DNA of 64,000 bases from an uncultured Candidatus Rokubacteria bacterium. GTDB lineage: Bacteria; Methylomirabilota; Methylomirabilia; Rokubacteriales; CSP1-6. Below are positions 1-2,468 of this stretch, piece by piece (the stretch's first letter is position 1; every line of letters starts with the position of its first letter). Below the pieces are notes generated by a model. That model was not told the DNA's origin. It worked only from the letters and a program-made list of their open reading frames with translations, and did no database searches. The translations under genes were made by a program, and so were the position numbers. The stretch is from positions 2,272,001-2,336,000 of the forward strand of contig CAVYTA010000006.1 in assembly GCA_963771355.1 (NCBI GenBank), written 5' to 3'.

Positions 1-59
1 GGGCTAACTTCCTAACTGTATAGCCTCCCGAGCGGTGCGGAGGCCGTCAACCCCCGCGT

Positions 60-80
60 TTGTGCCCGGGATTGTGCCCG
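60..80. repeat. Direct repeat TTGTGCCCG x2 (12-bp period), possible integrase arm-type site at an island edge
   Basis: TTGTGCCCG at 60-68 and 72-80, next to the integrase relic. Confidence 0.4.
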
Positions 81-139
81 TTAGTCGACGGGTAGTCTCC
101 TGGAGATCGGCGTCGCTTACGATGGCATAGCGGCGACAG

Positions 140-322
140 TCAAGCGCCGTCCGCGGAAGAAGGGGTCCAGATGGGCGAGCCGGCGGTTGGCCTCCTTGCC
201 TCGCGCTCGCCCGTCGTCTCGTAGTGCCGCTTGAGGTCGTTGCGCGCCTCGTCCTAGGTCACGCGATCGCGTGTTCTCGCGGATCGGCTTGCCTTGCGCG
301 TAGTACTTGATCCAGTAGACGC
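140..322 (-). pseudogene. Relic of a tyrosine-recombinase (phage integrase) N-terminal region
   Basis: Across frames reads VYWIKYYAQGKPIRE / DRVT*DEARNDLKRHYETTGERE / EANRRLAHLDPFFRGRRL; in-frame TAG and frameshifts; no catalytic domain. Confidence 0.6.
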
Positions 323-326
323 GGAG

Positions 327-348
327 AAAGTGTTCCCTTCGGAACAGT
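327..348. promoter_or_regulatory. Palindromic operator-like motif, copy 1
   Basis: AAAGTGTTC-CCTTCG-GAACAGT; same motif at 649 and 1521. Confidence 0.55.
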
Positions 349-648
349 CCGCAATTCTGTTTTTGCAGAATCCGACAAATTTTCTGGAATCTCTCTAGCG
401 CTCGGCGAGAAGCGCGCGTAGGGTCATCAGTAGGAGCGACGATGATCCGACTCGGAGTAATAGGACTGACAATTCTCCGCTGGCTCGCCGTAGCCTCCAT
501 GGCCGTTCTCGCCTACTTCCTCGCCGACTGAATGTCGGGGGTGTTCAATCCCGCGAGCTGGCCCCTAGCACTGGTAGCCGCGATCATCCCTGTGCCTCCC
601 TGTAGCGTCTGACCGCTCCGTAAAGGACGTCCTTGCTTTCGCCTCACC

Positions 649-672
649 AAAGTGTTCACTTTGGAACACTTT
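649..672. promoter_or_regulatory. Palindromic operator-like motif, copy 2 (perfect 9-bp arms)
   Basis: AAAGTGTTC-ACTTTG-GAACACTTT, 20 bp upstream of the TTG start at 693. Confidence 0.65.
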
Positions 673-692
673 TTCGGACTCGGAGGCCACCC

Positions 693-860
693 TTGACGAA
701 CCGGATCGACCGCCACGGGAATCCGATCTGCCCGGTCTGTGAACTCCCCCTCCTGAAGCCCTACACCTGCCCATTTGTCGGCGAGCAGCGGGTGCACCAC
801 GAATGCTGGGCCACGCCATTTCCGCGTAGCGCCGGCGGGCCACCGCGGCAGTCAGGCTGA
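693..860 (+). CDS. 55-aa CxxC-x18-HxxC zinc-finger microprotein (paralog A)
   Basis: GGAGG RBS at 682-686, TTG start; CPVC...HHECW; 37/54 identical to 1569-1733 by manual alignment. Confidence 0.7.
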   Translation: MTNRIDRHGNPICPVCELPLLKPYTCPFVGEQRVHHECWATPFPRSAGGPPRQSG

Positions 861-867
861 AGCGCGT

Positions 868-1041
868 ATGAAAATGAAAGTGATCAACCTGGACACACGG
901 ACCAACATCGCCACCTTGGAGTGCGAATGCGGGGGCCTGACGCTCATTTCCACGGCGGGGGCGACGGAAGCCATGCCCAATCGAGGGCACTGTCCCGTAT
1001 GTAACGAAACCTTCGACTACCCGAACGACCTGACGACGTAG
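868..1041 (+). CDS. 57-aa Cys-rich zinc-ribbon-like microprotein
   Basis: MKMKVINLDT...CECGG...CPVC; starts 7 bp after paralog A. Confidence 0.5.
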   Translation: MKMKVINLDTRTNIATLECECGGLTLISTAGATEAMPNRGHCPVCNETFDYPNDLTT

Positions 1042-1346
1042 CGACGTTACAGTCCCTCCTCCAATCGTTGACGGTTCTTCCCCGTAGAGCGGTCTGGGCC
1101 TAATGGCCCTCCTCCGGCCCCTTGAGCAGCCGCGCGAGATCCTGGCGGCGCCTTGAGTCGGCGGCGGCTGTCATCGCGCTTGCACCTCGAGAAACGCCCG
1201 CCCGCATGACGAGGACGATACTCGGGAGCAACTCGCCGCGCTGCGCCTCGGTCAACGCCGCCTCATTCTGAACGATGGGCGGCGGCAGCGCGGAAGTGGC
1301 ACTACAACACAGCCGGCCGCCTCGAGGATCGCGGCACCGGTGCTCG

Positions 1347-1378
1347 AAAACCCCTGGAAGTAGTGAACTTTCCAGGGG
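1347..1378 (-). terminator. Intrinsic terminator-like hairpin on the minus strand
   Basis: CCCCTGGAA (1351-1359) / TTCCAGGGG (1370-1378); AAAA at 1347-1350 gives a U-tract on the minus strand. Confidence 0.45.
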
Positions 1379-1520
1379 GCTCGATGCTCCCCGGCGTCAA
1401 ATGCCCGGGAACCAAAGGAAATAGATTTCACATCCCCAGCCGTAGCTCACGGCAGTCATTCGCTTCCCTCCTGGTACGCCTTTAGTCCTACGCCGCAGGG
1501 CGTCTTGCGTTCGAGTCGAG

Positions 1521-1542
1521 AAAGTGTTCAATAAGGGACACT
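1521..1542. promoter_or_regulatory. Palindromic operator-like motif, copy 3
   Basis: AAAGTGTTC-AATAAG-GGACACT upstream of paralog B. Confidence 0.6.
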
Positions 1543-1568
1543 AATCGTTCTGACTCGGAGATTCGCCG

Positions 1569-1733
1569 GTGCCCAACCGACTCGACCCTTACGGGAACAC
1601 GATCTGTCCGGTCTGTGAGTTGCCCATCTTGAATCCCGACACGAGCCCTTTCGTCGGCGATCAACGGGTACACGCAGCCTGCTGGGCCACGCCGCTTCCG
1701 CGCAGCGTCGGCGGGGCACTGCGCACGTCATGA
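1569..1733 (+). CDS. 54-aa CxxC-x18-HxxC zinc-finger microprotein (paralog B; absent from ORF track)
   Basis: GGAG RBS 1557-1560, GTG start, MPNRLDPYGNTICPVCELPILNPDTSPFVGDQRVHAACWATPLPRSVGGALRTS*. Confidence 0.7.
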   Translation: MPNRLDPYGNTICPVCELPILNPDTSPFVGDQRVHAACWATPLPRSVGGALRTS

Positions 1734-1739
1734 AACCAG

Positions 1740-2009
1740 ATGCCTGACCAGGCGCGGCTGCGAGAACACGCGCGCGCGGCGATCCGCAGGGGAAAATTAC
1801 CGGCGCGGGCGCCTGATCGCACCTGGGGCGGCCGCGGTGTAGGGGCTCCCTGCTCGGTTTGCGAACTCCTCGTCTCCACGGACCAGGCGGAAATCGAGAT
1901 CGAGTTCGCCCATGACGGCAGCGCCCCCGGACTAGAGAAGCATCACGTCCATCCACGGTGCTTCGCGGCGTGGGACCTCGAGCGGACGGGAGGCACCTGG
2001 CAGCCGTAG
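1740..2009 (+). CDS. 89-aa hypothetical protein with CxxC...HxxC putative Zn site
   Basis: WGGRGVGAPCSVC...HPRCFAAW; starts 6 bp after paralog B. Confidence 0.7.
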   Translation: MPDQARLREHARAAIRRGKLPARAPDRTWGGRGVGAPCSVCELLVSTDQAEIEIEFAHDGSAPGLEKHHVHPRCFAAWDLERTGGTWQP

Positions 2010-2031: not shown

Positions 2032-2448
2032 TCAAATGCCCGACCGCGCGGGATCCACGAAGCGGAAGTAGACCAGCGGGATCAGGTAGAACAGGAGCAG
2101 CTGGCCCGACGCCATGCGCAGGGAGCCGGCCTCGGAGAGTAGGGTGAGGCCGAAGTTGAGCACGGAGTAGGCGGCGGTGGCGGCCAGCAGCCCGCGGAGC
2201 GGCGGCGGCACGTGGCCGGCGAGGGCGCGCCAGTCGTAGAAGTGGAGGTGCTTCCACCGCCGTGCCGGCGTGTCGGCGCGGCGCAGCCGGATCAGCATGG
2301 CGCCGAGGAGCGCGAAGGCGCCGGCGAGGAGCCCCACCACCCATCTGTCGTCGATCCGCTCCGCCAGCGGCGTGAAGCTCGCCAGGTGCAGGAGCGCGCT
2401 GGCGCCGAAGCCCACCGCCGCCGCCGCGTGGAGCACGCGCCCGAGCAT
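2032..2448 (-). CDS. Hypothetical membrane protein (about 4 TM)
   Basis: Four hydrophobic segments; likely start MLGRVLH. Confidence 0.6.
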   Translation of the reverse strand: MLGRVLHAAAAVGFGASALLHLASFTPLAERIDDRWVVGLLAGAFALLGAMLIRLRRADTPARRWKHLHFYDWRALAGHVPPPLRGLLAATAAYSVLNFGLTLLSEAGSLRMASGQLLLFYLIPLVYFRFVDPARSGI

Positions 2449-2468
2449 GGCCTCTTCTATCACGGAAA

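Follow-up and report, generated by a model that had tools for sequence, protein, structure and literature searches.

The 64,000-nt window analysed here lies on contig CAVYTA010000006.1 of an uncultured Candidatus Rokubacteria bacterium (genome G000). Near its left end are two decayed members of one small tyrosine-integrase element family, very probably stacked at a single bacterial attachment site (attB). Coordinates refer to the window, and negative positions lie just left of it. Each element carries a promoter module (P_A), a gene for a predicted single zinc-finger protein (A1 or A2) and a gene for a second small cysteine-rich protein (B1 or B2). The whole reading combines the stacked elements with zinc-finger adaptor cassettes that would be switched by a repressor, and its probability is put at about 0.5. 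An initial annotation had seen duplicated modules within one decayed integrative element. The decayed integrative context is supported by att repeats, empty sites and an integrase remnant. The modules belong to two att-bounded elements, and A1 and A2 come from different subfamilies.

Two elements at one attachment site

The 12-mer core GTCAAATGCCCG has three copies in the 5.5-Mb genome, all at this locus. The left att core is outside the window (-31 to -20; G000:C6:2271969), the internal core marks the junction of both elements (1396-1407) and the right core follows element 2 (2031-2042). The left and internal cores are each followed by the same element-end motif. The right core includes the host target gene's stop codon (2032-2034, minus strand); this gene (2032-2463, minus strand) encodes about 143 amino acids and has no Pfam or NCBIfam match. 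In five of seven congeners the site is empty, and the nuoL upstream region is joined straight to the host target gene. The other two share the left junction and have other cargo behind it, whose predicted genes include no integrase. The restriction of the three cores to this locus, the shared end motif and the empty or differently filled sites in congeners are the reasons for reading the region as two stacked elements.

Element 1 (1-1395, about 1.4 kb) is delimited by the core repeat, the end motif and the empty site in relatives. It contains a tyrosine-integrase remnant (43-324, minus strand) that matches the integrase at C6:683295 in tblastn (E 5e-7) and the integrase of G181, a second genome of the order, in blastn (74-88%). 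In this remnant, the N-terminal arm is fused to the last ~30 codons, the middle is deleted and the frames are broken. Pieces of two further element genes (1100-1347, minus strand) were recognised by blastn against other element loci, where the copies are intact, by six-frame reading and from gene lists. They are a frameshifted 81-aa gene, R, and a fragment of a 95-aa gene. At its right end, element 1 has an inverted repeat (1351-1378) with a match in the G181 element, where the right end adjoins an att repeat of its own. Element 2 (1408-2030) measures 635 bp from core to core and consists of the element end, P_A, A2 and B2, with no trace of an integrase. No intact integrase was found in the locus. 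Among 35 sister-locus proteins scanned there was no relaxase or conjugation module, although no search was aimed at a relaxase or oriT. Other direct repeats flank the same gene kit in G181 (16 bp) and in the loci L149 and L151 (19 bp).

A local tandem duplication is ruled out by the att cores and by the subfamily split of A1 and A2. An integrase that targets -35 boxes was also considered. TTGACA occurs in two of three non-tRNA cores but is out of register between the cores, and 14 of the 20 fetched relatives, out of 50 matches, adjoin tRNA genes. This idea was dropped for these two reasons. The two hexamers lie at likely -35 boxes, at -32 to -27 in front of nuoL and in L089 (6841-6856 and 10361-10376) at a gene resembling DAHP synthase. 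The third core, in L149, has TTGCCA, out of register.

Related sites show further arrangements. In two congeners the same attB holds integrase-free islands (L087:12947-15803 and L088:854-3928), with genes of a kind that matches PF04392 elsewhere. Two more stacked elements are located at a tRNA-Val gene of G000 (L003-L004; C6:677000-699000), with a DnaB-like helicase, a replication initiator and terminase remnants. In L149, L151, L152 and L153, a block with the order A-B2-B1-M-y (module M and gene y are described below) is apparently placed between the N- and C-terminal parts of an integrase, in the position of its middle.

Selection and descent of the A genes

A1 (693-860, plus strand, TTG start) and A2 (1569-1733, plus strand, GTG start) encode 55 and 54 amino acids and are predicted to be single C2HC zinc-finger proteins with the ligand pattern C13-x2-C16-x18-H35-x2-C38-W39. 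Their paralogy and selection on their frame, both proposed in the initial annotation, hold. With both starts taken as Met, 37 of 54 residues are identical; 22 codons are identical, 14 differ synonymously and 18 non-synonymously. The ratio of non-synonymous to synonymous substitution rates (dN/dS) is 0.37 (p=0.005), and each of the other five frames gives a higher value. This pair is the best case for selection among the ten pairs of the five genome copies (0.37-1.19). Along a spanning tree of 21 sequences, the corresponding polymorphism ratio (pN/pS) is 0.53 (p=1e-6), compared to 0.60-1.46 in the other frames, and the four ligands are invariant in all 21. This set comprises 16 of the 21 metagenome loci, one second copy and four of the five genome copies; fused, cut, frameshifted and gapped rows and two near-duplicates were dropped. 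Purifying selection on A and B1 is of moderate strength.

In a midpoint-drawn tree of promoter plus A (22 sequences), A1 and A2 lie on opposite sides of a split with 100/99 support, which assigns A2 to a second subfamily. A clade of A1 and A2 was rejected by the approximately unbiased test (p-AU 3.4e-6). L145, L147, L151, L152, L157, L162 and a truncated G181 copy are absent from this tree. Both genes are nearer to copies elsewhere (92% and 90% nucleotide identity) than to each other (76%).

The window copies could be inert relics, with selection acting only during the mobility of the parent elements. The broken integrase and R genes fit this idea, as do the damaged operator arm and long branch of A2 and the several gene pairs with dN/dS near 1. 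It is judged improbable: all five small open reading frames (ORFs) of the window, namely y, A1, B1, A2 and B2, are intact amid broken larger genes, and 18 of 21 metagenome A copies are intact.

Predicted fold of the A proteins

A1, A2, B1 and B2 have no match at the Pfam curated cut-off and none in NCBIfam, PHROGs or PADLOC. The statement of the initial annotation that no family is recognisable is correct for databases; the folds of A (LIM-type) and, weakly, B2 (PARP-type-like) are recognisable, and B2 belongs to a very large family. The first finger of LIM proteins has the pattern C-x2-C-x16-23-H-x2-C. A profile of 34 A sequences, with the first-finger ligands invariant in all 34, matches the first finger of LMO4 and LMO2 (best E 3e-4). 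The structure model has a predicted local distance difference test score (pLDDT) of about 90 for residues 1-40 and weak matches to treble-clef fingers. It superimposes on a LIM finger of LASP-1 with a root-mean-square deviation (rmsd) of 1.6 Å over 30 residues (Z 2.8). The Pfam LIM model gave a weak match in two distant members of the 34 (best E 0.002). The second finger of a tandem pair is not present; the protein ends after one finger. A LIM domain is a tandem finger pair (PMC4999995), and A is therefore counted as a half-LIM rather than a LIM member. The models predict a lone LIM-type finger. The bacterial proteins that most resemble a full LIM-like pair were seen in L018, L024, L025, L030 and L200; they have 70-100 amino acids and contain two CxxC..HxxC fingers in tandem.

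A word-index protein search returned one A homologue, and six-frame searches were needed. Close A homologues occur in G000 and G181. Looser single or double C2HC fingers are present in 52 of 183 genomes of the order, in a search whose profile took in distant matches. An alignment of the A profile with the B2 profile has a probability of 81%. A complex prediction for A and B1 scored 0.05 (mark 0.32) and was not used as evidence. Zinc binding by A and B2 is a prediction only; of 14 purified haloarchaeal proteins with predicted fingers, five were zinc-free (PMC11241148).

Companion proteins

A different small cysteine-rich ORF follows each A gene, as the initial annotation had described by the motifs CxC..CxxC and CxxC..HxxC. 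B1 (868-1041, plus strand) starts 7 nt past the A1 stop codon and encodes a 57-aa CxC..CxxC protein. Of 183 genomes in the order, three contain it, all from the genus of G000; its pN/pS is 0.49 (p=3e-5, 15 sequences). Profile matches concern its C-terminal CxxC exclusively.

B2 (1740-2009, plus strand) encodes an 89-aa protein of the pattern CxxC-x29-HxxC, which has a helix at its N-terminus and an R-x-W-G-G motif. It belongs to a large unnamed family: 89 close homologues, including its own record, and at least 4,055 representatives or clusters at 50% identity. Atlas neighbours are unnamed clusters throughout. Of 251 genomes in the phylum, 116 contain matches, numbering up to ~20 per genome, and pairs have dN/dS values of 0.17-0.63. 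The B2 model (pLDDT 89) gave the zinc fingers of PARP-1 and DNA ligase III as first ranks in two programs, with weak scores (Foldseek E 0.01; VIA Z 4.5, rmsd 4.7, 62 aligned residues). No Pfam family, including the PARP-type finger, matched B2 at E<=1. A PARP-type-like finger is the closest but weak fold match.

By analogy, B2 may sense DNA breaks or nicks, for example at element excision or phage attack. The top fold matches (PARP-1 Zn1/Zn2 and the ligase III finger, in both programs) and the ligand spacing CxxC-x29-HxxC would agree with such a sensor, and a SRAP gene is found ahead of the cassette at two loci. In PARP-1, the arginines R18 and R34 grip the DNA. Mapped from HMMER ranges alone, B2 would have G35 and a nearly invariant E51 at these positions. 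Together with the weak fold scores, a net charge of 0, no PADLOC match and no occurrence of the inferred LexA box in element loci, this makes a break sensor a doubtful explanation, about as improbable as inert relics. In the two SRAP loci, the SRAP gene is directly upstream of a P_A-A-B1 cassette (L005:5469-6143; L163:181-855).

The neighbourhood of B2 homologues points weakly to signalling. For this comparison, 37 loci were merged by eye into 30 clusters; 60 neighbours, a chosen subset, were scanned. In 7 of the 30 clusters a receiver-domain gene lies no more than 1.5 kb away, compared to at most 6% expected from the G000 background (p=0.002); 6 of 30 have a transposase, integrase or recombinase. 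One of 72 long B2 homologues is fused to a receiver domain. The neighbourhood and the fusion are the sole functional hint, a weak one, for a role as adaptor. Some B2 homologues have fixed chromosomal places, which suggests domestication. They are situated between a flavin reductase gene and an Mrp/NUBPL gene (L031, L035) or upstream of a BamD/YfiO gene (L205, L209).

A further gene, y (442-531, plus strand), was missed in the initial annotation. It encodes a 29-aa hydrophobic peptide with a grand average of hydropathy (GRAVY) of 1.64, has seven further genome copies and a pN/pS of 0.57 (p=0.007, 16 sequences). By its sequence, y looks like a type I toxin or a small membrane regulator. No antisense RNA was found for y.

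Promoter modules and probable operators

The first P_A copy (561-692, plus strand) contains a conserved CTTG(C), a perfect palindrome TGTTC-N6-GAACA (653-668) and a GGAG ribosome-binding site (682-685). The palindrome of the second copy (1437-1568, plus strand) is located at 1525-1540 and has one arm mismatch. The initial annotation had reported this palindrome and a GACTCGGAG block in front of both A genes. Both are present there, the block at 677 and 1552. A further GACTCGGAG at 449 lies within a coding frame, and in other copies the block as such is not kept; chiefly its GGAG core is. A third palindrome (331-346) is fused to the front of a promoter-like module, M (348-440, plus strand), and the same fusion occurs at C6:678659. 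Twelve aligned genome copies of M begin at the same base. The module opens with a second palindrome, TCYGCAA-N8-TTGCRGA (348-369), which has six exact copies in G000, all in element loci, and one in G181. It was found in 7 of 183 genomes overall, compared to 9 for a reversed control.

Two perfect TGTTC-N6-GAACA sites are present in the window where 0.01 are expected, and the palindrome precedes A in 20 of 21 sequences. Among 16 distinct copies, the arms are conserved in 15-16 of the 16, four spacer positions vary and two are invariant, and no pair shows a two-sided change. These properties led to the reading as a protein-bound operator, which is likely. Five of the seven perfect copies in the genome are in element loci. 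Nine of 183 genomes contain the exact 18-mer, and its copies in genomes other than G000 and G181 are of parS type or scattered.

Several other identities of the palindrome were discarded. It shares its arms with parS and lacks the CACGTG centre; true parS-like sites are at C3:73564 and 73589. A structured RNA was rejected on the missing two-sided changes and a single chance hit in Rfam. A recombination site was set aside in view of the variable spacer and the real att core elsewhere. The palindrome is not the host LexA box: it is present in 0 of 26 lexA upstream regions. In most of these 26 genomes of the order (L001, L091-L118), a conserved palindrome, TCAAC-N4-GTTGA, overlaps the lexA promoter and may be the LexA box of Rokubacteriales; the stretch inspected upstream of recA in G000 does not contain it. 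With one mismatch allowed, 0 of 21 genome hits of this inferred box are in element loci; the own lexA site of G000 deviates more than that.

Position 1-2100 contains no sigma-70 consensus site, and terminators are at chance level. Host genes have no strong operator sites, so the regulators are likely element-encoded. Candidates are an XRE-family protein and a protein K of 84-90 amino acids, both lost from the window elements and present in sister elements of G000. In many elements K adjoins the integrase gene and diverges from it (L089:8055-8306; L008:13883-14152), and it is a candidate regulator or directionality factor. K has no match in Pfam, NCBIfam or the PDB; with its profile giving no PDB match, an assignment as ribbon-helix-helix protein is unsupported.

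The same architecture would also accommodate A as the regulator: a dimer of A may bind the operator, repress P_A and thereby control the downstream cargo. In 20 of 21 sequences, the gene that comes first behind the palindrome is A, and both genomes with close A homologues have the exact 18-bp palindrome with the same spacer type. DNA-binding treble-clef fingers exist, for example in nuclear receptors (PMC4999995). However, the linkage may be hitch-hiking, and in front of module M (331-346; C6:678659) the palindrome occurs without A. A has a net charge of 0 to +2 and a predicted helix of just four residues. Autoregulation by A is considered unlikely, although slightly less so than the relic or break-sensor explanations.

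A shuffled gene kit

G000 contains five copies of A, four of B1, seven of B2 and seven of y besides the one described. Most A and B1 copies share their locus with integrase remnants, XRE genes and tRNA pieces; the surroundings of certain B2 copies, such as C7:252849, contain none of these. A metagenome scan yielded 21 A loci. Eighteen have an intact ORF for 54-56 amino acids, one is cut by a contig end, one reads into B2 and one has a frameshifted tail. The gene orders include A-B1, A-B2, A-B2-B1-M-y, A-y-B1, A-B1-B2 and A-y; several loci are near-duplicates, so these are arrangements and not independent counts. Some shuffling joints are between coding regions and have no repeat there. In L145:765-1121, A runs in frame into B2, a fusion that is either natural or made by the assembly.

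The gene combinations bear on a role in addiction, one of the functions regarded as conceivable in the initial annotation. Toxin-antitoxin modules may retain integrase-less elements, with y as a type-I-like toxin or with B as toxin and A as antitoxin. The hydrophobic y peptide (26-29 amino acids) is under selection, and the small ORFs are intact while the integrase and other genes decay. The separate occurrence of A, B1 and B2 speaks against an obligate A-B pair: A has no adjacent B at C6:679051, L155 and L164, B1 occurs without A in G178 and L090, and B2 occurs without close A homologues in more than 100 genomes. Pfam and NCBIfam gave no toxin match and Rfam no antitoxin RNA match. Addiction is an unlikely explanation, on a par with autoregulation by A.

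The cassette genes may also be anti-defence or early accessory genes left by prophages. One sister locus encodes a replicative helicase, a replication initiator and a terminase large subunit. A1, A2, B1, B2 and y have no PHROG match, and no B2 relative is encoded in the 131 IMG/VR stretches that match the pattern. A phage origin is the least probable of the explanations considered, with very little credence.

Between 65% and 94% of the window's words are present in soil and rhizosphere metagenomes (14 runs, 5 studies). RNA contigs (4 runs, 3 studies; unstranded) cover y, A1, A2 and B2 and also nuoL, and are not counted as proof of expression. One stretch (L015 1909-2120, window ~1100-1310) was uncovered in all RNA runs examined. 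Codon-usage scores of A1, A2 and B2 are near zero or negative, as expected for foreign genes, and were not used as evidence. Loose contig ends in run X18 (L015:2184 and 2252) show that other strains differ beside the internal att core.

Proposed mechanism and significance

In the preferred reading, each element would have brought a cassette of promoter and microprotein genes, and the apparent duplication would be two arrivals of one gene kit. P_A may drive A and the gene behind it. A would be translated from the GGAG site, and B, starting 6-7 nt past the A stop codon, would be translationally coupled. An element-encoded repressor (the XRE-family protein or the integrase-adjacent K) may bind TGTTC-N6-GAACA, now only in trans. 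The single zinc fingers would act as protein-binding regulatory adaptors.

Some results weigh against this combination. Several concern the A and B1 genes: some pairs have a dN/dS near or above 1, the A tail is neutral (pN/pS 1.08) and both G181 copies of A are broken, in an assembly with many frameshifts. The fold matches are weak, with Foldseek E never below 0.001 and VIA rows that differ by no more than 1 Z. For the receiver domains, the enrichment was calculated with a background from a different genome and with clusters merged by eye, and the B2 loci annotated in G000 have no receiver gene beside them. A single query found no intact cognate integrase in G000. Finally, G181 has an A-B1 module and a truncated A-B2 module within one element that is bounded by a different 16-bp repeat. 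The pairing therefore predates the stacking, and both modules belong to the common kit of the family.

A wider interpretation is speculative and rather unlikely, though less so than any of the alternatives above. Rokubacteria may have a toolkit of stand-alone half-LIM and PARP-type fingers that spreads as promoter-bearing cassettes on integrase-free mini-elements (down to 635 bp). Shared att sites would still allow insertion and excision of these elements in trans, under the control of two private operators. The B2 family would then be the bacterial sister group of eukaryotic PARP and LIM fingers and would plug into two-component signalling.

The accretion of decayed elements at one att site and the shuffling of modules are already known kinds of structure. 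For the cassette families and operators, no description was found in the openly accessible literature, in addition to their absence from Pfam, NCBIfam, PHROGs and PADLOC. A is a predicted bacterial single LIM-type finger and B2 defines a very large unnamed family; both may bear on the origin of the eukaryotic LIM and PARP-type fingers. A, B2 and the two operators are concrete and cheap targets for structure, metal and partner analyses in an abundant uncultured soil lineage. The lexA comparison provides a candidate LexA box for the order as a by-product.

Comparison with known systems

The closest known architecture is that of cis-mobilisable elements (CIMEs) and their tandem accretion at one attB, described for decayed, ICESt1-related elements with att repeats (PMC5704250). 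CIMEs have likewise lost integration genes and kept direct att repeats, and they accumulate in a stack at a target gene's 3' end, with an att junction inside the stack. The window elements are far smaller (635 bp and 1.4 kb) and have no intact neighbour that could mobilise them in cis. Their cargo consists of unnamed microproteins, and no conjugation module was seen in parent elements. They are set apart from CIMEs proper; the likeness is in the att architecture and the loss of integration genes. Relaxase-free islands are a known kind of structure as well (10.64898/2026.01.13.699239).

The promoter early stem-loop (PeSL) regulatory cassettes of T4-type phages are repeated promoter modules among small ORFs of unknown function (PMC2839356). 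Like modules M and P_A, these promoter repeats are interspersed with shuffled small ORFs. The present modules contain operator-like palindromes and reside in chromosomal integrative elements, not in a lytic phage. They also differ by the missing sigma-70 consensus and the chance-level terminators in 1-2100, and the cassettes have no phage link.

At the protein level, A shares the spacing C-x2-C-x18-H-x2-C and a predicted treble clef with the first LIM finger of LMO2, LMO4 and LASP-1. Unlike LIM domains, A has one finger; some distant A relatives have two tandem C2HC fingers. B2 has the CCHC ligand order and long hairpin of the PARP-type fingers of PARP-1 (Zn1/Zn2) and DNA ligase III, with a weak fold match. 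It differs from them by the missing Pfam match, the extra N-terminal helix, the R-x-W-G-G motif and acidic residues at what would be the positions of the DNA-gripping arginines. The haloarchaeal C(P)XCG micro-proteins are likewise stand-alone cysteine-rich proteins of less than ~90 amino acids that expanded within a lineage (PMC11241148). In place of two C(P)XCG motifs, A has CPVCE and HxxC, B2 has CSVCE and HPRC, and B1 has CECGG and CPVCN. A and B2 are bacterial and are carried by integrative elements.

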